Source: an uncultured Chthonomonadaceae bacterium
Lineage (GTDB): Bacteria > Armatimonadota > Chthonomonadetes > Chthonomonadales > Chthonomonadaceae
Direction: 5' to 3'
Assembly (NCBI GenBank): GCA_963817895.1
Contig: CAWFQB010000004.1
Coordinates: forward strand, 935,908 to 999,907
Length of the DNA stretch: 64,000 nucleotides
Made by a program: the position numbers and the translations under genes
Shown here: piece after piece, positions 33,441 to 53,939 of the stretch
Layout of the letters: each line of letters starts with the position of its first letter
Numbering within the stretch: the stretch's first letter is position 1
The notes under the pieces: generated by a model
Told to the model about the DNA's origin: nothing
What the model saw: the letters and a program-made list of their open reading frames with translations, nothing else
The model's database searches: none

Positions 33441-36400
33441 GTGCCAACCCAACTTTCCAACCCTTTCCAGTTTGCCAATCCCCTGGTATTTGCTGCTGCT
33501 GCCGCTCGTCTTCGCCTTTTTTGTCTGGTGCAATCGGCATACGGTGACGGATATGAGTCCCACGCGCCGCATGGGCGCGCTGGTGTTGCGCTGCGGCCTT
33601 GCCATTCTGCTGATTCTGATACTGGCGGGTTTTAAGATCGTCAAACCGGGAAATTCGCTGGCGGTCGTGTTTGTTGTCGACTCGTCGAAAAGCGTTCGTG
33701 ATGATCAGCGAACGCGCATGGAACAGTATATTCAGGAAGCCGGACGAGGGATGCATACGGTTGATAAGATCGGGGTGATTACGTTCGCGAGCGAGGCGCA
33801 TCTGCAATCGCCGTTGGGACAGCCGCTGGACGCGACGTCACCTGCGCGATCCCGGCGTGACGACGGCTACCGACATCGGACACGCTTTGCAGCAGGCCAA
33901 GAATGAACTGGATACGGCGGCGCGGGATTCGGGCAAGCGCATCGTTCTGCTTTCGGATGGCAATGAGAACGTCGGGCGGGCGTTGTCCGTTGTGCGGGAA
34001 TTGAATGCCGACCACATTGTTCTGGATACGATTACCCTCTCGGTTTCCCTGCCCAAAGAGGCGCTCATTGATAAAATGACGCTGCCCAACCGGGTTAAAA
34101 TCGGGGAGCCGTTTACCGCCAAAATAGTCGTCAGCAGCCAGACCGCGCAGCCCGCGACTATTTCGTTGTTTCGGGACGGCAAGCCGACAGGGTTATCCAA
34201 ACGGGTTGACCTGCACCGGGGCAAGAACGTTGTCGCGTTCGACCAGATTGTTGGGGATAAGGGATTTTACCGTTACAGCGCCACATTGGACGCCCGCGAA
34301 GATACCATTCCCGAAAACAACAAGGGCGAAGGCTTTGTGTGGGTGGAGGGCAAGCCGACTATTTTGTATGTCGCGGACAGCCCAACGTTGACCGGCTTTC
34401 TGCGCAAATCCCTGCAAAGCCTGAACATTAACGTCGAGTACGCCAACCCGGACGCGATGCCCACATCCGCTGCCGCGCTTCAGCCGTATGACAGCGTGTT
34501 TTTGAGCAACGTTCCGGCAAGCGCGCTGTCGTCGGCGCAAATGACCGCCTTACAGGTGGCGTGTCGGGATTTCGGGGTGGGGCTTGGCATGGTGGGCGGC
34601 GATACCAGTTTTGGCGCGGGCGGCTATCGCGGCACGCCCTTAGAGGACGCGCTGCCGGTTTCGATGGACGTGAAGAAGCAGAAACGGCTGCCCTCCGTTG
34701 CCGTCGCCCTTGTGATTGAAGATTTGGAAATTCCCACAACCGTCAACATGTCCATTGAAGCCGCGAAAGCCACGATGGACTTGCTGGAACCCATAGATCA
34801 GGTGGGGGTTCTGGATTGCAACGGGCCGGGCGGCTATGGCAACGGCGACATCGCGAACATGGCTCCGGGCGGAACCTGGCGTATTCCGATGCAGCATGTG
34901 GTAGACCGCGAAGCCATCAAAAGCCAGATGCAGAACTTGCAGGGCATGGGCGACCCGCCGAACTATGACCCGTTTCTGATGGAAGCCGGACGCGTGCTGA
35001 ACCAGACGGACGCCAAAATCAAGCACATCATTTTTCTTGGCGACGGCGACGCGGTGTACGAGGCGAACCAGAGCGCGATTACCGCGCAATATTCAGCGTA
35101 TCCGCGATATGGGCATCACGGTTTCGACGATTTCAACGGGCGCGGATCAGAGCGGCATCCACTTCATGGCCGCGCTTGCGAAAACGGGGGACGGGCAGGC
35201 GTATGTGGCGGAACGGGCGCAGGATTTGCCGCGCCTGCTTCTGAAAGATCAGCAGACGATTTCGCAGCCGCCAATTATCGAGGAGCCATTCCATGTTGTG
35301 CCTACCGAGGGCGACGAGATACTGAAGGGCATTGATTGGAATGGCGCGCCGCCCCTGCTCGGCTACGATGTGACGAGTTTGAAACCTACCGCGACTGCTG
35401 GCCCTGCGCAACGGCAACCCGAACCGCGAAACCGACCCGATTTTTGCCGGCTGGCGGTACGGATTGGGGCGTTCCGTTGCGTTTATGTCGGACGACCGGG
35501 CGCGATGGGCGGCGGCGTGGATGGGCTGGCCGGGATACGCGAAGTTCTGGGCGCAGGCCGTGCGCTGGACGCTGCGCCCGTTCGCGCCAAGCGAGTACAG
35601 CACACAGATCACGATGGAGAACAACCGGGGGCATATCGTCGTGGACGCCATTGATGATAAGGGCCGGTTTGTCAATCGCCTGAGTTTGAAAGCGCGGATT
35701 GTGCCACCGGGCGCGACGGGAATCAAGGGCGCGATGCCAACCGAAGAGGTTCTGCCGCAAACCGGGCCGGGACATTATGAAACCACGTTCGACGCGCCCC
35801 AAACCGGAACCTATCTCGTCAACGTGCTGCAAAAATCCACCGAACCCGGCTAAGCCGGATAAATCCACGCGCATCGGACTGGCAACGTCGTACTCGCCGG
35901 AATATAAAGACACGCAGGCCAACCAGTATTTAATGACGCAACTGGCGCAAACGGGCGGCGGGCGCATGGAACCCCCGGCAAGCGGCGTGTTTACCGCAGA
36001 CCGTCCGGTTGTGTTCGCGGCCGTTGACATGATTCCGGTTCTGATGCTGTTTACCCTGCCTTTTCTCCTGTTCGACATCGCCACGCGCCGCCTTGCCGTC
36101 GAGCGCAGCGACTTTGCCCGCGCGCTGGCGTGGGTGACAGGCCGCAAAGCCACCGTTCCCAAAGGCCGCGCCGCCACGCCGGAATTGTCCCGCTTGATGG
36201 AGCGCAAGGAGGCAGCGGTTGGGAATAGAAAAGGAGAAAAGGAGAAAAGGAGAAAAGGAGAAAAGGAGATGGATGGGGAGGATTCATCCTTCATCCTTCA
36301 TCCTTCATCCCTGGCCGAACACCAAACACCGAATACCGAACGCCGAAGCCGGACTATTCGACCGGAGGGGGCGGAAACGGTTGCGGCGGCTGTGGTTCCT

Positions 36401-37373: not shown

Positions 37374-37566
37374 ACCTTACCCCCGGCCCCTCTCCTTGCC
37401 GCGCAACGCGCTAGGAGAGGGGAGAGCATAGTTATAAATTTTGCCAGAACAGGTAAATGTTTGTGAGGCACAGTACAATACAATTGCTGTTCAAGCACAA
37501 TTTTTGAATTAACTGCTCCCCTCTCCTAGCGCGTTGCGCGGCAAGGAGAGGGGCCGGGGGTGAGGT
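37374..37566. repeat. REPIN-like inverted pair between convergent genes
   Basis: ACCTTACCCCCGGCCCCTCTCCTTGCCGCGCAACGCGCTAGGAGAGGGG and its near-perfect reverse complement at about 37517-37566. Confidence 0.88.
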
Positions 37567-37574
37567 GTATCAAA

Positions 37575-41264: not shown

Positions 41265-41448
41265 GTAGGTTCCTCCTGTGAATGGGGGCGGGGAAATTGC
41301 AGGCGGCTGCGTCCATGCGTTACCAGCAGCCCGTGGAGTCTCCTGCGCGCCCTGTGGGTTGTCCCTCTTAATTTACCCGTTTGTTTGCCATTTCCTGCGC
41401 TTTCAACAGGCAATTTCCGGTCATTTGTGAAAAATAGTTTGCAGACGG

Positions 41449-43782
41449 CTATTTTGCTGGGGTTTCCTTACGTTGTCGCTGGTAAAACGCGGCCAAAACT
41501 TTGGCGTCGGCGGCAACTTCGGGGTGATCTTCGCCAAGCGCGTGGCGGTCTACTTCCAACATTCGCGTAAAGTGGTGTTCCGCTTTCTGGCCGCGCCCGG
41601 TATGTTCATATAAATGGGCCAGATTGTGGTGGGTGATGGCAAGGTCGGGGTGGCCTTCGGGATAACAGTGTTTTTGCATAGTCAAGGCTTCCAGAAACAG
41701 CGGCTCCGCCTCTTCAAAACGTTTTTGATTGCGGTACAGTTCCGCCAGATTCTGGGCGCAGGTGGCGGTTTGCGGATGGTTAGCGGCAAGATGGGTTCGC
41801 CAGACTGTCAGAGCCTGTTTGTAATGCTCTTCGGCTTCCTCGTGGCGCTTCTGACGGTAGTACAGCAGCGCCAGATTGTTTAGGATGTTTCCGACATAGC
41901 GGTGTTGTTTGGGAAGGTCCAGCCGCGTCACTTCCAGCGCCTGAAGGAAGAGCGAACTCGGCTTCCTCATACAAGCCCGCGCTACAGCGCGCGCCCGCCA
42001 GATTGTTGAGGCTTTGCGCTATATCCAGATGATTGTCAGGCAGGGTTTGCCGCCGCATGTCGAGCGCGAGATTGTAGTGCGCTGTAGCCTCCTCACAGCG
42101 TTCCTGACGGTGGCGCAGCAGCCCCATCTGGCTGAGATTGGAAGCGTAGTGGGGATGGCCGTCCGGGTACACGGTTTGCCATATCTCCCGCGCGGACTGA
42201 TAATAGGACTCCGCAGAGGATAGCGGCCACATTCAAACAGAAAACGCCCGACATTATCCAGCAGCAGCGCGGATTCAGCCGTCCTTAGCTTTGCTTCACG
42301 AATGATTTCACCCACAACAAGGGCATGAGACAGCAATTTGCGGCATAATTCCCACTCTTCAAATTCGGGAAAGGGGAATGCGCTGCTGACCGCGCGAACA
42401 ACCCGCTCTTCCCACTCCTGCCTTTCGCTTTCCGAAAGCCTGTCTTTGGTTACTTCCTGTACCAGCCGGTGAAGACTGAACGCGCGGTCTTCCCGATTAC
42501 GGGCGGCAAGCGAGTAGCGCGTCAACGGTTCAATCGCCTCGTTGTAGACCTCTTCAGCCTCCGCGTCGTCTTCCGCGCCCTCAAAAAATTTGCGCAGGCC
42601 GGGGCAGAACTCTCTGGAACCGCGTCTGACAAGTTCAATCGGAATGTCGTCCGGGGCCAGAAACGCGCTGAACCGAAGCAGTTCTGAGGCATATTTCCCT
42701 GCCGTTTGCGTTCGATGCGCCTCTGCCTCAATCACTTCAAAGTTGATTGCCAGCGTTTCGCTTACGGTTGGCGGGTACTCTCCGCTAATCGGCGGACGTT
42801 TGTTCAACTGCGCCAGTTTGCGTTTTTTGTAGAGCGCGAGGTAGTTGGCGAAAGTGGTCATGTGCGCAATGTAGGCAATGGCCTGTTCCATTGCCAGCGG
42901 CAGATGGCCCAGAAGGGCGGCGAGTTCCGTTGCGGCCTCGCGCTCGACAGCGGGAACCTCCTTGTAGCGGCATCTGCGCAGGAAAAATTCCAGCGAGTCT
43001 TGCGGCGAAAGGGTTTGCAGGGCAAGGATTGCCTCAGAATTGAGGAAGTCCAGATGTTGCGCTCTTGTCGTAATCAAGATGTGGCATTTCGGATTTTTGG
43101 GCAGGCAGAGTGTGCCTGTTTCCGGTTTATCAAGGTTGTCCAGAATGAGAAGCCAGCCCGTATGTTTTTCCAGCCAGCGTATCGCCGCTTCCGCCTGCGC
43201 TTCCGCTCCCAATGCCGCTCCGGGCAGTTTTAGATGGCGAGCAATCTCCGCGTATCCCTGCTGAATGTCGGTATCCGCCTCGGCCCGGAGCCAGAATACG
43301 TAGTCGTACTCCTCCTGAGTGAACTCGCAGTACGCGAGTGCCGTCTGCGTTTTGCCCATGCCGCCCATGCCGGAAATCGCCGCGATGCTGTTCTGTTTCA
43401 GGAGCGCGCGAACGGTTTCTAACTCCTGCTTTCGGCCCGTAAAGCTTTTGCTGAGTTCGTTGGGGACATAGGAATGTCTGTGTGTGGCGCGTGTGGCCGT
43501 TGGAAAGGGTTCGTAATCGGAGCCTGTGTGAAGAGTAAGCCCGAATTTAGCGAACAGGCGCTCGAGGCTGTAGTAGGTGACGGGTTCGCTGCGCTCAAGC
43601 ATCCGACCAATGGTTTTGTAATCGAGAGCAAGGCCTTGCATTTGGGCGATGGCTTTATAAAGAGCATACCGTTTCAGGGGATTCCGTTTTTTGTCACACG
43701 GAAATTCTGGCGATTGGCAGAGCCGCTGATACCCGACTTCGGTAAGCAGCAATCTGCTTTCATTGTAACGAGGTTCCTCCAT
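41449..43782 (-). CDS. STAND NTPase: N-terminal HTH-like domain, NB-ARC and TPR array (frameshifts near 42220 and 41950)
   Basis: FTGRKQEL, GMGGMGKT (Walker A), WLLILDNLD (Walker B), ILITTR, GHLPLA, LHRLVQ; kinesin-light-chain-type TPRs HPxxA.SLNNLA.LY. Confidence 0.9.
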
Positions 43783-44057
43783 AACTGCTGTATCCTCCTT
43801 CTAAACAGACGCGCTTCCCTGGCTGAAATTCCAATGAGTCCAATCAGTTCAATGTAATGATACCCTGATAATTGTGCGTGTATACTGATTTCAAGCCTTC
43901 TCACGAGATATGTTACCCGACCTGGACTCTTCAAAACTAAATTTCGCGTTTTTAATAAAATATTTTGAAGTGCGCCTGCAAATCGGGATATATGCGTTGC
44001 TTTTCTCCATCTTGGTATTTACAAGGCCATACCTTTATGTGTTCACAAGGCCATTCC

Positions 44058-45290
44058 ATGCAAATTGAAGTAGAAACTAATGTTCGGAATAGCCCGGAAA
44101 CCGGCGCTTTGTCTGAGCGCGTACCGGATGTACAGGACTGGGACCGCGAATACCGAGTTTATCAAAATTCGAGCGCGGTTCGGGCTGAACAACGTCTGCG
44201 GGAACTGTCGGAAAGCATATACCCATACGTGGGAAAGATTGTTACGGGCGAATTCAACAGCAGTCTTGAAGCGGAAGATGTAATACAGAACGTCATGATC
44301 AATCTGGCCGATGCCTGGAGAAGAGGGCGGCAGATTAACAACATGAAGGATTATGTTCGCAAGGCTTGCCAGAACGAGTGCGCCGCGACCATAAACAAAA
44401 AGCATCCCAAATATTTCAGTTGTACCGGGCGGGTGGAATATCGTTTGGATCCGCGCCGGGGATTCGCGCATTGGGAGGCAGGCGGGCAAAAGTGGGGCGG
44501 CCTGTCGGCGTGGGCCGATTCCAATCCTGCCCGCATGTACGCGGAAGACGCGCGGCTGGAACAACTGGTAAAATCGCCGTATCAGACGCTGTGTAATTTG
44601 AAGTCTCTGCGAAGCGTGGATATTCGCGTGGTTCGTCATGCGGACGCAGTTCTCGGCGCGATATTTCGGCACATCGGCCATGCGATTTTGCTGAAACAAC
44701 TGGTTCCTATCTTTCAGGAATTGTGGGGTTTGCGCGACAGCCAGGATGTGGAATTGGACGCCAATGGTTTGCAGCCGACTCAGGAAGACGCTGATCCTCT
44801 AAATTTAATCATCATGCAAGAAGCAAGCGCAAACAATCCGCAATCGTGCTGGCAGGAGATAAAAGCCATGAACCGCTCGCAACGTTGCGCGTGGATGCTT
44901 CATGCAGAGTTGGATGATCCAAAAATGCCTGTCATTCATGGATTGATGCTTTTCGGCATCGCCAGCCGGGCAGAGATCGCGCGCGTACTGGAAGTCGAGC
45001 CGGCTGCGCTTGCTATTCCCCTTCTGAGCCTCTCCCTGGATCAAATTGCAGACCGTTTGAAGTTGCCCGCGTCGTTCCTGCGCAAACTCACCCCGGAAGA
45101 ACTGGAAGCCGAAATTGTCAGGAGCGCGCCGCAGGAACTGCAATTCAATCAACAGACACTGCCGCTCAATCAGAAAGCGATAGGAGAATTTTTGGGCTGT
45201 CAAACGTCACGTGTCGCAACCCTGAAACAGGAGGTCCGGGAGCGATTGAGTCACTACCGCCCTGCCGGAAACAAAGGCGGGCAGAACTGA
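44058..45290 (+). CDS. Elongated ECF-like sigma-70 factor (about 410 aa)
   Basis: Region-2-like EAEDVIQNVMINL..W...NMKDYVRKACQNEC. Region-4-like CWQEIKAMNRSQRCAWML...QKAIGEFLGCQTSRVATLKQEVRERL. A zinc-finger anti-sigma gene starts 1 nt after the stop. Confidence 0.72.
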   Translation: MQIEVETNVRNSPETGALSERVPDVQDWDREYRVYQNSSAVRAEQRLRELSESIYPYVGKIVTGEFNSSLEAEDVIQNVMINLADAWRRGRQINNMKDYVRKACQNECAATINKKHPKYFSCTGRVEYRLDPRRGFAHWEAGGQKWGGLSAWADSNPARMYAEDARLEQLVKSPYQTLCNLKSLRSVDIRVVRHADAVLGAIFRHIGHAILLKQLVPIFQELWGLRDSQDVELDANGLQPTQEDADPLNLIIMQEASANNPQSCWQEIKAMNRSQRCAWMLHAELDDPKMPVIHGLMLFGIASRAEIARVLEVEPAALAIPLLSLSLDQIADRLKLPASFLRKLTPEELEAEIVRSAPQELQFNQQTLPLNQKAIGEFLGCQTSRVATLKQEVRERLSHYRPAGNKGGQN

Positions 45291-45291
45291 T

Positions 45292-47925
45292 ATGGCACAC
45301 CTGAACCCTGAACAATTAGAAGCCTATCGCTCGGGCAAAATGTTCGCAGACGCGCGGCAGCAGGCCGCCGCGCACCTTGCGGATTGTGATGTGTGCCTTT
45401 CCGATTTGAGAGCCTTGCCGCTTCCTGTCGCTACAGCTTGTAGCGGCGGAAAAGGACGCGGATGCGTTTGCGGAGTTTGATGAGCATCTTAGCGTGGAGG
45501 AAATCACAGACTATATTGATGGCGAGGCGACGCGCGTGATGGAAGCAAGGATCGAAACGCATGTGGATACCTGCACATTTTGCCGCTATCGCGTAAACGA
45601 TCTGCGCGCCTTCAAAGCGGAAGTCGAGAGCGTTCCGGCGCTTTCTCCGGGTGGCGCGTCTGTGGCTCGGAATGTCTTTACCCCGTCTTCTATTTCCTCC
45701 TTATGGCGGGCGCGTCTGTCCGCGTTCTTTGCCGCGCTGAAAACACCACAACTCCAGACAAAGTGGCTTGTCGGGGCAACTGTGACCGGAGCCATAGCCG
45801 CGTTTTTGATTTTGCGCCCACATTCAGAGCCGAAGTCAGGGCCTGAATTTGATGTGACCGGTCAGAAATTGACGCGGCAATTGCAGCAGCCTGTATCCCC
45901 GGTTCAGAGTGGGCATAAGCTACGCGATCATGAACTAGCGACGCCCCGCAATAACCGCCGGCGTCTGACCGGCGCGAAAAAACCTGAACGAGAATTACAC
46001 ACACGGCCGGAACCCCACGTTGCCGGTGGCGGACAAAAAACAGCCGTAAAGCCTGTACACACGGGCGTGAACACACACGCGGACACGGTTGTTAAAACGC
46101 CGGAGGCATCCGAAACCCATGACACTTTGCCGCCGCTGCAAATGGCGGAACCAATGTTGTCGCCGACCATCCATCAAAACCAACCTGCGCTGTCGTCTTC
46201 GCAGCCCGTTCAGCCGACACAAAAATCTATTCAGCCGCCGCCCTCATCGGTTTTACCAAAGCCGAAACTCGTTCCGCCGTCGCCGCGATTGCCCAAATCC
46301 TTGCCGCAACTGGCTTTGCCGGCGCAGCATCGGGGTATTCATCAGGAACAAACATCTGTGCCATCGCCACAGCCTGTTCAGCCGTCTCTTCGTCTGCCCA
46401 GGTCGTCACCGCCAGCGACTATGCCAGCTTCGCAGCCGGTTCAGCCGCCACAAAAAACTATTCAGCCGCCGCCGCAAATAGCGGTTGCCCCGCCACAACC
46501 GGCGGTGCCATTGCCGCAACCGACGGTGGCGGTAGCACAGCCGCCGGTTCATCAGAATGAACCGCCAGTCAGGGAGGCAGTTGTACATACGGCGTCCATC
46601 CACATGCAGGATGTTCCCATTTTTGCAGATGACCTGACGCCGCGCCGCTCTGGGAAACATTCCCAACCTGAACGATGAGGCCGCGCCGGAAGCGCGCATG
46701 ACCCTTGGCCGCAATAGTCACATGGTTATCTTTGGGGCGATAACGGATGTATGGTGTCCGCCGGGGAGTTTCATCGAACTGGTTCCCAACTTGAATATTG
46801 CCAACTTTAAGCCCGTCACCCTCACCGTGTATGATGGGCTGCAAGCCCATTCCTACCTGGCAGATACGAGGGAAATACTATGCGTGGACCCACCCGGCGG
46901 TGGCGTCAACCGTAAGGTCGTCACGGTCAAGGCTTTCGATGCGCAGGGCCACGACAGAGTTCTGATGCAGTGTACCGTACGCGCTCATGTTGCCAATCCC
47001 ATGGTAGCCGCCATTACAAAGCATAACGAGCAGTGTAGTATTCAAGTCCCAGACCGCCAGTTGTTCAAAAATACTTGCCTGTATCTGGGTGACATGTATA
47101 TGGGGCAAATAGGGCAAGGCGCAGGCAAGGTTGATCTGGACGAGCGCCTGCTCCCGCCGGGAAGATACCAATTCCAGATGGTTGTAAAGAATACGGATGA
47201 CATTCTCATGCCTGGTCCGATCAGCGATTTTACCGTGCCAACTCGCTACACGATTGAATGTCCGGGTGCCGAGCGAGAAATCGTCATCGGGGAGCATGCC
47301 GATGAGAAGCTAAGAGTCAGAATTACACATGCGCCAGGGTTGAGCATCAAGAAGACGCGCGTGTATATCGCGGGTATTTTCGGCGGGGAACGGGAAGGCG
47401 ACAGGTTTATAATGGATCTGCCTACGCGACGTGCCGAATGGCAGTTGCTTCATTGAAGTGGTCGGGATTGGCGACGATGGCGTTATGTACCCGGTGGAAA
47501 GCATTCCAATCAAGATCAGAAACGAACCCTGGGAAACACGCTTTACCCACACCGATGAGTACGAGCGCATGGAAGCGTACAACGCTAAAATTGATGAACT
47601 GTGGCAGGAGGTCCGCGCTAATCTCAAAGGCGCGGATTACGAGTCGGGCATTTATCTGGACAGTAACATGATTACGCTGGAAAGCATCACGAGGCATTAC
47701 AAAGTAGGAAAAAAAGGCGAATATCAGGCCGCTGCGGAAAAAGCGTTTATCCAGATGACGCAGTATCAACTGAAATTAGCCCGCGTGTGCCGAACAATAA
47801 AAATGCTGCCCCGCGCGAGTTCCCTGTACAAGAATGTGATACGCGAGATGGGCGTGTCTACGCCGGATGGAATCGCCGCCAGGACGGAACTCGAGGCGCT
47901 GCGACAACACGCCACTCTGATGTAA
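45292..47925 (+). CDS. Membrane anti-sigma/receptor: two zf-HC2 zinc fingers, transmembrane helix, Pro/Gln-rich stalk and a large ectodomain (frameshifts near 45420, 46640, 47425)
   Basis: HLADCDVC and HVDTCTFC; transmembrane WLVGATVTGAIAAFLIL; SQPVQP repeats. Alignment with the intact paralog at 49107-50525 continues across the 46640 and 47425 shifts. Confidence 0.8.
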
Positions 47926-48343
47926 TCAAGAAATTTCATAAAAAGTTTTACGAAAAGTGAAATTTTAAGGATATAACAGGGTAAAATCCGCATCTAGTGT
48001 AAATAGAAGGCGCACAACTTCTGAACTACCGGCAAAAATGCGTACTGGAATTTTTCTGAAAATTGCGGAGGGGATGTAAGAGGGCCATTTATGCAGGCGA
48101 CTACATCTGTATGAAGCAAGAGCAGGATTTCCCTTCTTACGCGGCGTCTCGGGCTGCGGGGTAAGTCTTCCATCGGCAGCAGGGGCTTGTAAGGCAGTCT
48201 GGCTGTGAAGGGAGTGGTTCGTTGATATGGAGAGTTTGCGTGTGCAGGTTTGTTCGCGCAACTCAAGTCATCTGTTTCCGGCGTCATTTGCGCGCTTTGC
48301 CTATCGCCTGCCATCGGCAGGCAGAAGTGGGAGAAATGATCTC

Positions 48344-48991
48344 ATGGTTCTTACTTTCAATCAATGCCTGGGCCGAACTCCTGGCCCTGGGGGCCTTCTG
48401 GCGCTGACCTTGAGTTACTCGCTCATGGCCTCGCAGCCGGCAGTTGCTCAGGCGCGTATGCAGCGCCCGCCCACGCCACATTACAGCGTTGGACTGAATG
48501 GCAGTCGCAGCGCGGTCAACCCCAACCTCGGACAGGGCGGCAACCCCAACCTCGGACAGGGCGGCAATCCGGGTCTTGGGCAAGGCGGCAACCCCTCGCT
48601 GGGGACCGGTGGTGGATTTGGGGGAGCGAACAGCGGAATCAATAATGGCGGGGGAGTACCCGGAAGAATCAGAGTTCCGGGACGCGCAGGCAACAATCCC
48701 GGCTTTGGCCCCATTATCCCGCCCGGAACGAAATTCGGCCCCATTATCCCGCCCGGAACGAAATTCGGCCCCGTTATTCCGCCCGGAACGAAATTCGGCC
48801 CCATTTTCCCACCCGGCACTAACTTTGGTCCCGCTGTCCCGCCCGGAACCCGGTTTGGCGCCCCCGGTAGTCCGGGTTTCGGGCAGGGCAGTAGTCCAAT
48901 CACACCGCGTGGGGGCAATGTCGGCGCGGGACAAGCCGGCAATGTCAATCGCGGCGCATCCTTTAGCCCGCCTCGTCGCCGCTCCCGGTAG
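48344..48991 (+). CDS. Secreted Gly/Pro-rich tandem peptide-repeat protein
   Basis: GGGAGA RBS before ATG 48344; signal-like GGLLALTLSYSLMASQPAVA-Q; four NPxLGxGG and five FGPxxPPGT(K/N/R) units; PPRRRSR tail. Confidence 0.72.
   Translation: MVLTFNQCLGRTPGPGGLLALTLSYSLMASQPAVAQARMQRPPTPHYSVGLNGSRSAVNPNLGQGGNPNLGQGGNPGLGQGGNPSLGTGGGFGGANSGINNGGGVPGRIRVPGRAGNNPGFGPIIPPGTKFGPIIPPGTKFGPVIPPGTKFGPIFPPGTNFGPAVPPGTRFGAPGSPGFGQGSSPITPRGGNVGAGQAGNVNRGASFSPPRRRSR
48518..48853 (+). repeat. Coding tandem repeats: 24 nt x4 (48518-48613) and 30 nt x5 (48704-48853)
   Basis: AACCCCAACCTCGGACAGGGCGGC and TTCGGCCCCATTATCCCGCCCGGAACGAAA units, multiples of 3, varying mostly at synonymous or conservative positions. 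Confidence 0.92.
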
Positions 48992-49106
48992 TTTCGTTCA
49001 GGCGAGCGGGGCATGGATGTATCGAATGTTGCGCTCGCCTGACCAATCCATGCGTAGGATCAAGTTCTCCAGCCTCATGTGATTTAGTAATTAGAAAGGG
49101 AAGACC

Positions 49107-50525
49107 ATGAATTTTGTACACAATTTCCGCCATGTTTCATTCTTCGGTGTTGTGGCGCTCTGCTGCCTGCCCGTCATAAGTTCCGCCCAAAAAGCGGACA
49201 CGCCCATCTATGCCGATGACCTGACACGCGACGCGGTGGGACCCATTCAACACGTTGATAACCAGGTTCCCGCAGAAGCGCGCATGAAGCCTGGTCCCCA
49301 GGGCCGGATGGTTGTAATGGGCGCAAAGACGGATGTATGGTGTCCGCCGGGGAAGTTCATCGAACTGGTTCCCAACATGAATATTGTCGGCTTTACTCCC
49401 GTCACCATCACCTTGTATGATGGGCTGCAAGTTCATTCCCAAGCAGCGGACTCGAAGGACATTCTGCGCGTTGACCCGCCCGTCGGAGGCGTCAACCGCA
49501 AGGTCGTCACGGTGAAGGCGTTCGATGCGCAGGGCCACGACACCGTCCTGATGCAGTGTACCGTGCGCTCTCGCATCAGCAAAGAAACCATTGCCACCTT
49601 GGACTATGAGGAGAATAAGGAAAAGTGCAGTTTCAAGATCAAGGATCGCGATCTGTACACGAACACCTGCCTGTATATGGGCGAAATGTACCTGGGCCGC
49701 GTGGAGGAAACCGCCGGTAAGATCGAAGTGGATGAGCGCCGCCTGCCGCCAGGCCACTACACCTGCCAGATGGTCGGCAAGAACTCGGACGACATTTACG
49801 TTCCGGGCGCGACCACTGAATTTGATGTGAAGCCGCGCTACCAAATCGAGTGCGCGGGCGCTGAACGGGAAATCGTCATCGGGGAACACGCCGACGAGAC
49901 GCTGAAGGTGAAGATTTCGCACACTCCCGGCCTGAGCATCAAGAAAACGCGCGTCTACATCGCGGGTATCAGGGCCGAGAAAGACATAGAGGGCGACGAT
50001 TTCACGGTGAACCTGCCCACGAAAGACGTGCCGACCGGCAAGTGTTTCATCGAGGTAGTAGGGATTGGTGACGATGGCTTCACATATCCGGTGGAGAGTA
50101 TTCCCATCAATATCAAGAACGAACCCTGGGATTCACGCTTTACCCACAGCGTTGATTACGAGCGCATGCAATCGTACCAGGCCAAAATAGATGAACTGTG
50201 GCAGGAAGTTCGCTCTAATATGACACGCGCCAGCCATGAGCCGGGCGTTTACATGGATACCAAGACGATTACGCTGGAAAGCATCACGAAACACTACAAG
50301 GTAGGCAAAAGCGCGGAGTTTTATGCCGCTGCGGAAAAAGCGTTTATCCAGATGACGCAAAACCAACTGAAATTGGCCCGCGTGTGCCGAACCATGAAGA
50401 TGCTGACCCGCGCGTGTTTCATGTTCAAGAATGTGGTGCGCGAGATGGGCGTGTCTACGCCGGATGGACTCGCTGCGAAGACGGAACTCGACGCGCTACG
50501 GAAACCGGACTCCAGCGTCCTGTAG
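49107..50525 (+). CDS. Secreted hypothetical protein, paralog of the anti-sigma ectodomain
   Basis: Intact 472-aa ORF, signal peptide ending ISSA-Q. Shares long identical blocks with 46600-47925 (TDVWCPPG, GGVNRKVVTVKAFDAQGHD, GLSIKKTRVYIAGI, AKIDELWQEVR, QLKLARVCRT). Confidence 0.9.
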   Translation: MNFVHNFRHVSFFGVVALCCLPVISSAQKADTPIYADDLTRDAVGPIQHVDNQVPAEARMKPGPQGRMVVMGAKTDVWCPPGKFIELVPNMNIVGFTPVTITLYDGLQVHSQAADSKDILRVDPPVGGVNRKVVTVKAFDAQGHDTVLMQCTVRSRISKETIATLDYEENKEKCSFKIKDRDLYTNTCLYMGEMYLGRVEETAGKIEVDERRLPPGHYTCQMVGKNSDDIYVPGATTEFDVKPRYQIECAGAEREIVIGEHADETLKVKISHTPGLSIKKTRVYIAGIRAEKDIEGDDFTVNLPTKDVPTGKCFIEVVGIGDDGFTYPVESIPINIKNEPWDSRFTHSVDYERMQSYQAKIDELWQEVRSNMTRASHEPGVYMDTKTITLESITKHYKVGKSAEFYAAAEKAFIQMTQNQLKLARVCRTMKMLTRACFMFKNVVREMGVSTPDGLAAKTELDALRKPDSSVL

Positions 50526-50530
50526 GATAG

Positions 50531-50670
50531 CCCTCAACCCCCAGCCCCTTCTCCCAAAAAAGCCTGGGAGAAGGGGAGCTACTTGATTGGTCTTCAACTC
50601 CCAATTCCTTCTCCCCCATGTTCCGTATTTCTGTTTCACCTTGAAATAGCTCATTTGGGAGAAGGGGTTG
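50531..50670. repeat. REP-like palindromes between convergent genes
   Basis: CCCTCAACCCCCAGCCCCTTCTCCCA..TGGGAGAAGGGGAGC plus a degenerate second unit; same family as 33078 and 37374. Confidence 0.7.
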
Positions 50671-50676
50671 CGCGTT

Positions 50677-52302
50677 TCAGGCGCGGCGCAGGACTTTGCC
50701 GGGGAGCGCGTAGGTGGGAGTATCCGCCTGTTTGGCGGCGACGCCGTTGACGAATACGTAGGGGATACCGGTTGGGAAGCGGAGCGGATCGTCGAAGGTG
50801 GCGGTATCGTGAATGGTTTGCGGGATCGAAGACAACGATGTCGGCGGCGTGTCCGATAGCGAGCGTGCCGCGCTGTTTCAGGCCCAATCGGGCGGCGGGC
50901 GCTCCGGTCATTTTGTGGATGGCGGTTTCGAGAGAGATCACGCGCTCGTCTCGGACATAGTGGCCGAGGACGCGGGGAAACGTTCCGTACAGGCGCGGGT
51001 GGGTTTTGCCGGGAAGGTGCAGGCCGTCGCTGCCGACCATCTGCCCCGGCCATTGCAGAATGTCGCGCACATTGCCCTCATGCGCGGCGTGATGCACATA
51101 GCAGGCGCGAAGTTCTTCCTCTTCCAGCAGATGGCAGACGAGTTCGCCGAGCGACAAGCCGCGCCGCTCCGCGATGACGGCGAAAGTCTCGCCCTCAAAG
51201 GGCGCGTTAGTGGCGGAAGATGCGCCGACAAGATTGTAGCGCGTGGCGTCAAGATTGGCATCATTGAGAAACGCGATAATGCCGTCACGCGACGTCCGGT
51301 TCCGCCAGGCGGCGCAAAATCGGGTCGGGGCCGCCGTCTACCGCCCACGCGGGCAGCAGCGATTGTATGAACGTAGAGCCTGCCGTATAGGGGTAGGTGT
51401 CGCAGGTGATGTCAATGCCGGATTGCCGCGCCCGGTCCAGCAGGGCAAGCAGTTCCGGGGCGCGTCCCGCGTTGTTCGGCGCCGTTCATTTGCAGGTGCG
51501 CGATTTCCAGTCTCGCGCCCGACTCGGCGGCAATGGCAAGACTCTCTTCCGTCGCCGATATGATATTGTCGCCATAGTCGCGCTGATGCGTGGCGAAAAA
51601 CCCGGCTGTTCGGCACAGCGTTACCAGTTCCTCGCGGCCTGCGGCCCGCATGGGCGCGTACCAGATGCCCGTACTCAGCCCCCACGCGCCCTCTTCCATC
51701 CCCTGCGCCACCATCGCCTGCATGAGCCGGAGTTCTTCTGACGTGGCCTCCCGTTCCGCCATGCCCATGACCGATACGCGGACCGACCCGTGCGGTATCA
51801 GATACACGATGTTCGCGCCAATCCCGTTCCGCTCGAAACTTGAAGAAAGTCAGCCACGCTACGCCAGTTCCAATTGACGATTGACGGATTGACGGATTTT
51901 TGATTGTGGATGGTGTCTTGTGCTCCTTTTCCTTCGCGATTGCTACGCCAAACAACCCGCCGATGTACTGCGCGCTGGATGCGCAGGGCTTCCTCGGTGA
52001 CGGGGGCGAAGCCTAGACCGCAGTTGGTGAAGACTTCCGTAGTGACGCCCTGCATGATTTTGGGCAGGTGCGCGGGGTGGGCGAGCAGGGCGATGTCGGC
52101 GTGGGTATGAATGTCTATAAATCCGGGCGCAAACGACCATGCCCGTGACATCAATGGTTGTCGTGGCCTGCGTTTCGGGCGGCAAGATGCCAATCGCGCG
52201 AATGTTGCTGCCCTCAACCGCAACATCGGCGGCATAGCCCGCGCTTCCCGTGCCGTCAATGACGGTTCCTCCGCGCAGCAATAAATCATAAGTTTCCGGC
52301 AT
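50677..52302 (-). CDS. N-acyl-D-amino-acid deacylase (D-aminoacylase; frameshifted)
   Basis: DLLLRGGTVIDGTG, APGFIDIHTHAD, QGVTTEVFTNCG, GAWGLSTG, GSDG..HPRLYGTFPRVLG and ADIVVFD. Confidence 0.9.
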
Positions 52303-53757: not shown

Positions 53758-53886
53758 TGTGTGCCGGGTATTGAAAATACCCGGCAGGAAAGTGCAAGCG
53801 TCTTGCAGACGCGGATGCTATTGTTGATGGTTGCGTCTGAAAGACGCTTGCTTTGTCTTGCCGGGTATTTTCAATACCCGGCACAC
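53758..53886. repeat. REPIN/MITE-like inverted-repeat element, copy 1
   Basis: GTGTGCCGGGTATTGAAAATACCCGGCA...TGCCGGGTATTTTCAATACCCGGCACAC, with an inner GCAAGCGTCTT.CAGACGC/GCGTCTG.AAGACGCTTGC stem. Confidence 0.88.
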
Positions 53887-53939
53887 CCGAACAATGCGAG
53901 TGCCTATGGTTCATATAGGGCTTTTTGCTTGTGGAAAGG

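Follow-up and report, generated by a model that had tools for sequence, protein, structure and literature searches.

A long ECF-type sigma factor and tandem-ZAS anti-sigma with a sensor probably captured from a neighbouring secreted protein in a Chthonomonadaceae genome

Anti-sigma factors with a ZAS domain sequester sigma factors of the extracytoplasmic function (ECF) type, and those with a single membrane pass set them free through two-step proteolysis (PMC11506125). In the SigI6–RsgI6 pair of Clostridium thermocellum, the GH10 sensor of RsgI6 is 57% identical to Xyn10D, and sigma-I6 activates the Xyn10D promoter (PMC4711584). Sigma-HetZ of Anabaena 7120, which is paired with PatU3, melts DNA by means of a hairpin in an insert following sigma2 (PMC13342950), and ECF54 is described as having genes for CHAT, subtilase and carboxypeptidase proteins nearby and no putative anti-sigma factor (bioRxiv 10.1101/2019.12.11.873521; PMC8999054). 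The locus considered here lies in a stretch of 64,000 nt (the window; contig CAWFQB010000004.1, positions 935,908 to 999,907) from an uncultured Chthonomonadaceae bacterium (assembly GCA_963817895.1), and comprises five genes at 41449–50525, encoding a STAND NTPase, a long ECF-like sigma factor, a membrane-anchored anti-sigma factor with two ZAS domains, a Gly/Pro-rich repeat protein and a secreted protein resembling the anti-sigma ectodomain. The gene order and coordinates proposed in an initial annotation of the window hold. We favour, at a probability of about 0.6, the reading that the locus is a variant, peculiar to this lineage, of a long-ECF/tandem-ZAS module so far uncharacterised; its new sensor was captured from the adjacent secreted binder, and its sigma factor would be released upon ligand binding.

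The long sigma factor and its membrane partner

The sigma gene (44058–45290, plus strand, ATG to TGA) encodes 410 residues, for which an AlphaFold 2 (AF2) model (pLDDT 86) places sigma2 at residues 24–115, followed by an insert of ~140 residues and by a sigma4 domain split across residues 253–406. Comparison by VIA aligns this sigma2 with that of SigC over 84 residues (Z 11.7, rmsd 2.0), and the sigma4, broken by an insert of its own, with that of SigE over 68 residues (Z 7.1, rmsd 3.0), confirming the sigma2/sigma4 fold that had been proposed for this gene. Pfam matches fall below threshold (PF04542 sigma2 at 17.8 bits with a cut-off of 24, PF04545 sigma4 at E 0.15), TIGR02937 matches at E 9e-10 and is also listed for 129 of 134 aligned family members, and Foldseek with the whole model gave no E below 0.001, nearly all listed rows being sigma factors. 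No Pfam match to sigma3 was found in the protein, the folded ~140-residue insert sitting between sigma2 and sigma4 instead. It consists of a beta-hairpin (residues 136–149) and a winged-helix-like part, matches the N-domain of the RNA polymerase delta subunit weakly (E 0.013), and contains residues W139, G148 and W152, which are 97–98% conserved in the family alignment. The sigma4 insert measures 85 residues, compared with a family median of 41. Two other family sigmas of ~490 residues (L123:8766-10256 and L124:3613-5061) have a sigma4 region that matches the profile twice, and from their sequences this insert seems to expand by duplication.

The long-sigma family numbers 377 representatives at 50% identity (HMMER), the nearest ESM clusters score 0.97 and are mostly from Acidobacteriota, and members occur in 24 of the 68 genomes of the order, with six loci in this genome. 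In a quick tree, from which four fragments were left out, the query sigma is nested inside the family and forms a clade with P0012 and P0013 (SH-aLRT 100); the corresponding profile match has an E of 4e-70, the query itself being part of that profile. A subfamily profile found no close members in 400 genomes of the phylum, and contig scans with the sigma subfamily and with the secreted family were blank. Since retrieval of the ECF groups required Pfam matches to both sigma2 and sigma4, which are weak here, the family may stand unclassified among the ECF Hub groups.

The anti-sigma gene begins (ATG at 45292) 1 nt after the sigma stop codon (TGA ending at 45290), a gap that bears out the suggested coupling of the two, as do 32 of the 42 related loci, where a ZAS anti-sigma is also encoded. 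Its first half (45292–46615, plus strand), delineated by motifs, Pfam and tblastn, contains two ZAS (zf-HC2) domains, an amphipathic helix, one transmembrane (TM) helix (19-residue hydropathy 1.64) and a Pro/Gln-rich linker of ~260 residues, 20% of them Pro. Two Hx3Cx2C motifs, each with an upstream His, flank a frame break at ~45415–45460, and tblastn matches this half to the tandem-ZAS neighbours of related sigmas. On the grounds of fold and synteny, we infer that the long sigma is held at the membrane by the co-translated tandem-ZAS protein. The linker carries a 46-nt internal repeat (93%; 46197–46242 and 46428–46473), a pattern that indicates growth through duplication.

The remainder of the anti-sigma (46616–47925, plus strand) comprises three Ig/FnIII-like domains, a helical hairpin and a TPR-like tail, and is 75% identical in nucleotides (973/1301; aligned secreted part 49203–50500) and 68% in amino acids to the secreted gene at the end of the block. 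The homology begins at 46616, at the mature N-terminus of the secreted protein, in frame with the TM/linker open reading frame (ORF; PIFADDLT versus PIYADDLT), and the shifted frame carries it on after one extra base, so that an ectodomain fused to the TM/linker ORF is the parsimonious reading of the sequence; further breaks lie at ~46640 and ~47425. The mature region of the secreted protein has been duplicated onto the linker, which takes the place of its signal peptide. The two copies are sisters (99/98) and are nested among stand-alone secreted proteins; their branches are of comparable length (0.25 and 0.22), and dN/dS is 0.26 at a dS of 0.75 (387 codons). The secreted paralogue recognised in the initial annotation is thus a true one, and by these rates both copies have been kept under purifying selection since a local duplication and domain swap that is, on the same estimate, old enough for retention by selection. 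Remote homology of the captured ectodomain to the canonical ectodomain of the family was considered and rejected (hhalign 0.7%), and no CHAT match was found in the captured domain, which consists of the three Ig-like domains and the helical tail. Low-depth contigs of run X1 (49395–49658 and 49949–50131) are mainly secreted-copy-like but hold short stretches with the bases of the receptor copy (12 of the 16 and five of the seven listed variants), a pattern explained either by conversion between the two genes in some related strain or by an assembly fault.

The secreted protein itself (49107–50525, plus strand, 472 residues with a signal peptide) is predicted by AF2 (pLDDT 87) to fold into three Ig/FnIII-like domains, a long helical hairpin and a TPR-like tail. 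Ten homologues, nine with a similar leader, were found among 5,421 candidates, and distant members occur in nine of the 67 other genomes of the order, forming a small family without a name whose members usually stand alone. Foldseek matches include SGBP-B and adhesins, a PDB profile search matched the FnIII-like modules of CbhA (E 0.011), and the family alignment has no invariant column; given these fold matches and the lack of an invariant column, the protein is a putative binder rather than an enzyme. ESM Atlas matches scored 0.78 or less, and a VIA search with the model returned mostly generic helical matches.

Genomic slot, assembly and companion genes

The block occupies a lineage-specific insert (41445–50683) at a variable slot. 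Alignment with congener G389 is continuous to 41444 and resumes at 50684, with a 1.5-kb PEP-CTERM gene in between, and congener G261 likewise lacks the block, so that the five genes share a single insert that is missing from both congeneric genomes. This fits a joint arrival of the five genes, from which a joint function does not follow. Dispersed intergenic repeat families were seen at 37375–37567, ~36230–36310, 50528–50590 and 53760–53905, all of them abundant both here and in G389, one copy falling immediately within the right boundary of the block.

The assembly (7.5 Mb, 14 contigs, 81% complete) is rich in single-base indels, and the ~8.3 kb of coding sequence in the block contain five frame breaks, two in the STAND gene and three in the anti-sigma gene. 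That all five fall in the two longest genes, that a second fusion was not found and that the slot varies among congeners would suit a non-functional patchwork, either a decaying chimera or two genes, the first a short anti-sigma that stops at 46678 and the second coding for the ectodomain on its own. We nevertheless hold this to be very improbable. Six flanking proteins, intact in G389, show seven frame changes here over ~2,020 codons (TyrRS has two of them and an RpoD-like sigma one), and the rate in the block is at or below that of these essential genes. There are no in-frame stops, the dN/dS of 0.26 speaks against decay, and a separate gene starting at 46698 would have no signal peptide while the homology runs in frame with the TM ORF. 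Because the rate compares with that of flanking proteins intact in the congener, the breaks are best read as assembly errors at background level. One public DNA run carries pieces of the block, its contigs being fragments that span none of the breaks, and no RNA run carrying it was listed.

The repeat gene (48344–48991, plus strand), built on 4.8 repeats of 30 nt and 3.6 of 24 nt, encodes an orphan Gly/Pro-rich protein of 215 residues with four NPxLGxGG and five FGPxxPPG repeats, probably secreted by way of a plausible but weak signal peptide (1.18). No credible homologue was found in 67 genomes of the order, a lone match at E 0.008 being a low-complexity stretch in a 664-residue frame. An FxSxx-COOH or cyclophane cluster of ribosomally synthesised and post-translationally modified peptides was considered and rejected, no radical SAM protein having been found among the scanned proteins of the block. 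An NLR amyloid-signalling motif was likewise considered and set aside, since the repeats belong to a protein of their own with a signal peptide.

The STAND gene (41449–43782, minus strand; breaks at ~42225 and ~41965) has NB-ARC (E 6e-12), DUF7779 and TPR_12 domains by Pfam, and its N-terminal piece, an incomplete gene product, scores 238 bits with NCBIfam NF040586, whose cut-off is 300. It begins with a domain of ~100 residues conserved in three proteins, this one and two other STANDs, which is a putative helix-turn-helix by resemblance. The earlier description of a helix-turn-helix-NB-ARC-TPR gene divergent from the sigma gene stands for its NB-ARC and TPR parts and its orientation, and is not borne out for its N-terminus, where neither Pfam nor PDB searches by sequence or three-sequence profile gave a convincing helix-turn-helix match. 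The gene has three paralogues elsewhere in the genome, and NB-ARC-TPR relatives were found in 12 of the 68 genomes. The two STAND relatives sharing its N-terminal domain (G000:C11:59885-63534, locus L169, and locus L165) are each interrupted by an ORF, presumably transposase-like.

Between the STAND and sigma genes lie 275 nt of divergent intergenic DNA (43783–44057, 41% GC), in which a 19-nt direct repeat (84%, spacing 24, at 44015 and 44039) occupies 44015–44057 directly before the sigma start codon and is a possible regulator site. Promoter and terminator scans performed at chance level (5 versus 6.2 and 9 versus 11.8, respectively).

The parent family and the proposed working

The customary surroundings of the long sigma were tallied at 42 other loci, of which five belong to this genome and 37 to related ones; some contigs are short, several matches fall outside the tally, the profiles were seeded in part from loci within it, related loci do not count as independent, and one further locus carried no family sigma. 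Within 2.5 kb, a ZAS anti-sigma is encoded at 32 of the 42 loci and a small FnIII+TPR ectodomain, which the anti-sigma carries in most relatives, at 22, and within 7 kb a CHAT domain is found at 20 and a C14 caspase domain at two (22 together), making a TPR-CHAT/caspase protease, overlooked in the initial annotation, the usual partner of the family. Within the same 7 kb, the secreted family, the repeat protein and an NB-ARC gene of the query type each occur at none of the 42, and a broader P-loop scan found a divergent STAND at one locus and one downstream NACHT. Conversely, no match to the sigma, ZAS, STAND or repeat protein of the window was found at any of 11 secreted-family loci (several short or cut, two G409 loci left out), and of the nine genomes of the order that carry the secreted family, just one has a long sigma, located on a different contig. 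The anticipated co-occurrence of sigma, anti-sigma, repeat-peptide and STAND genes was thus seen at neither set of loci (0/42 and 0/11), and by gene content the block appears to be a patchwork of local origin, comparative support for a conserved signalling system being lacking.

These counts weigh on the proposal that the five genes form one integrated circuit, with the STAND controlling the sigma and the repeat peptide and secreted copy feeding back as ligand, co-receptor or decoy. It can draw on the single insert, whose edges match 41449–50525, on the separate clade of the query sigma, and on the second long sigma of this genome, which faces the one divergent STAND of the tally, a BTAD-NB-ARC-TPR gene 129 nt away. 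Set against the zero counts, and against the commonness of STANDs here (32 SARP-STAND-like places), it is unlikely, and neither a peptide-ligand role for the repeat protein nor a role for the STAND in signalling is supported. Distinctly unlikely is a narrower proposal confined to a small subfamily with P0012 and P0013, in which a sigma whose hairpin insert melts promoters in the manner of sigma-HetZ serves a self-sensing circuit, the receptor recognising its secreted twin or the repeat peptide and the STAND providing a second input; were it true, it would amount to a homotypic cell-surface or density signal, with an ECF receptor caught gaining ligand specificity by gene capture.

The prevalence of proteases among the relatives (22 of 42 loci) raises another scheme, a switch gated in trans, where a TPR-CHAT protease from a different long-sigma locus cuts the receptor, the ectodomain acts as steric block or bait, and the output may be defensive. 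PDZ-TPR-CHAT genes indeed lie at two other long-sigma loci of this genome, and the DdvA model has ectodomain removal followed by RseP cleavage (PMC11506125). However, the block contains no protease, the canonical ectodomain that accompanies CHAT genes has been lost here, and PADLOC gives one weak TPR match among six proteins, all of which renders the scheme quite improbable. Membership of a known defence system was rejected on the same PADLOC result.

Variation within the family is considerable. Two canonical loci of this genome (G000:C4:197283-203634 and C11:192549-198402) carry a PDZ-TPR-CHAT protease, a long sigma and a tandem-ZAS anti-sigma, and that of the second long sigma (G000:C5:387594-392426, L166) has no anti-sigma and is followed by flagellar rod genes. 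At five loci in other genomes (L064, L127, L131, L136, L137) and one in this genome (G000:C14:249412-253341, frameshifted), the sensor is swapped for a sodium:dicarboxylate symporter (SDF) domain, fused to or directly after the tandem ZAS and often followed by a second SDF gene, an arrangement conserved in two genera whose ZAS-SDF protein is a putative transporter-like anti-sigma sensor. Two long sigmas without anti-sigma (L048:8329-10578 and L135:8280-10403) are directly followed by a Ser/Thr kinase, and are possibly regulated through phosphorylation. On a plasmid (L163; AP024153.1, BCM94518-BCM94517), a long sigma is paired with a ZAS anti-sigma whose ectodomain is DUF4384, and the genes around them encode secreted proteins of Calx-beta and subtilase type.

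Such sensor swaps, together with the RsgI6/Xyn10D precedent, make sensor capture plausible. In the favoured reading of a captured sensor, the new domain on its Pro-rich stalk of ~260 residues and the secreted protein probably recognise one external ligand in common, either a glycan or a protein at a surface. Ligand binding would render the anti-sigma cleavable by regulated intramembrane proteolysis (the genome holds one site-2-protease-like motif) and so release the sigma, which would transcribe the repeat and secreted-binder genes from the AT-rich region 47926–48343. By taking up ligand, the secreted copy may buffer the signal, and the repeat protein would be an output or a passenger. The STAND, which would have arrived with the block, may regulate the sigma promoter and is no fixed part of the family.

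Several points weigh against this reading. Every signalling step in it is inferred. At TM-scores of about 0.17, which are low, the tandem-Ig Foldseek matches give no indication of function. The fusion itself depends on frame breaks presumed to be errors, the five-gene set is known from one error-prone assembly only, and no second fused ZAS-ectodomain protein was found in a search of low power that covered 864–2465 residues, with 827–863 outside it. The three upstream regions have no promoter motif in common above chance level and share no 8-mer, and the two closest sigmas, P0012 and P0013, whose loci lie outside the tally, may belong with the query to a small conserved subfamily.

Comparison with described systems

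The literature covered, with most subscription journals outside it, yielded no named system with this make-up and no account of the long-sigma/tandem-ZAS module. Sigma2, sigma4 and a co-encoded membrane ZAS anti-sigma are all found here, as in ECF group 4, the pairing being predicted. The parent of the locus is the long-sigma/tandem-ZAS/TPR-CHAT module, with which it shares the sigma family and a tandem-ZAS-TM anti-sigma placed immediately after the sigma gene. The present locus differs from it in that the FnIII+TPR ectodomain is replaced, the adjacent CHAT/caspase protease is absent, the sigma4 insert is twice as long and a secreted paralogue of the sensor is present. The larger value lies in this parent family, with its hundreds of insert-bearing sigmas, tandem-ZAS anti-sigmas and caspase-like partners.

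Sigma-HetZ is likewise of ECF type, with a beta-hairpin-bearing insert separating sigma2 from sigma3.2 and a further insert next to sigma4, and the query sigma has a predicted hairpin (residues 136–149) following sigma2. The query differs in lacking the large N-terminal insert and in having a membrane tandem-ZAS protein as inhibitor rather than PatU3. Membership of the HetZ family was rejected by hidden Markov model (HMM): NF037963 had no matches in the genome, in a search made without positive control, the HetZ-related NF037964 gave short matches elsewhere and none at long-sigma loci, and neither is listed for 12 family sigmas. No HetZ structure was among the PDB matches of the sigma. Sigma-HetZ is best regarded as an architectural analogue, and the long-sigma family may share its insert-based promoter melting outside cyanobacteria. 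As for ECF54 and ECF58, ECF54 is described without a putative anti-sigma, whereas the long-sigma family mostly has one; membership of ECF54 was rejected given the anti-sigma and the lack of a protease in the block.

DdvS–DdvA of Myxococcus xanthus likewise pairs an ECF sigma with a single-pass ZAS anti-sigma bearing a large outer domain (PMC11506125), and the parent family recalls DdvS–DdvA split into two genes. DdvA has one ZAS domain and a fused TPR-CHAT, whereas here there are two ZAS domains, a 410-residue insert-bearing sigma, no protease in the block and no evident defence genes, and the periplasmic TPR-CHAT domain of the DdvA type is absent from the anti-sigma. No Pfam or NCBIfam match to SigI or RsgI_N was found in the block, which is thus not a member of the SigI–RsgI systems, yet SigI6–RsgI6 provides the closest working analogy, each being a membrane anti-sigma whose outer sensor was, here on the favoured reading, copied from a secreted protein. 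If that reading is right, the locus offers a testable case of a sigma/anti-sigma switch gaining an input by copying a neighbouring secreted protein, one that differs from the clostridial pair in its sigma, which is not SigI, in having ZAS domains in place of RsgI_N and an Ig3-TPR sensor in place of a glycoside hydrolase, and in the adjacent position of its donor gene.

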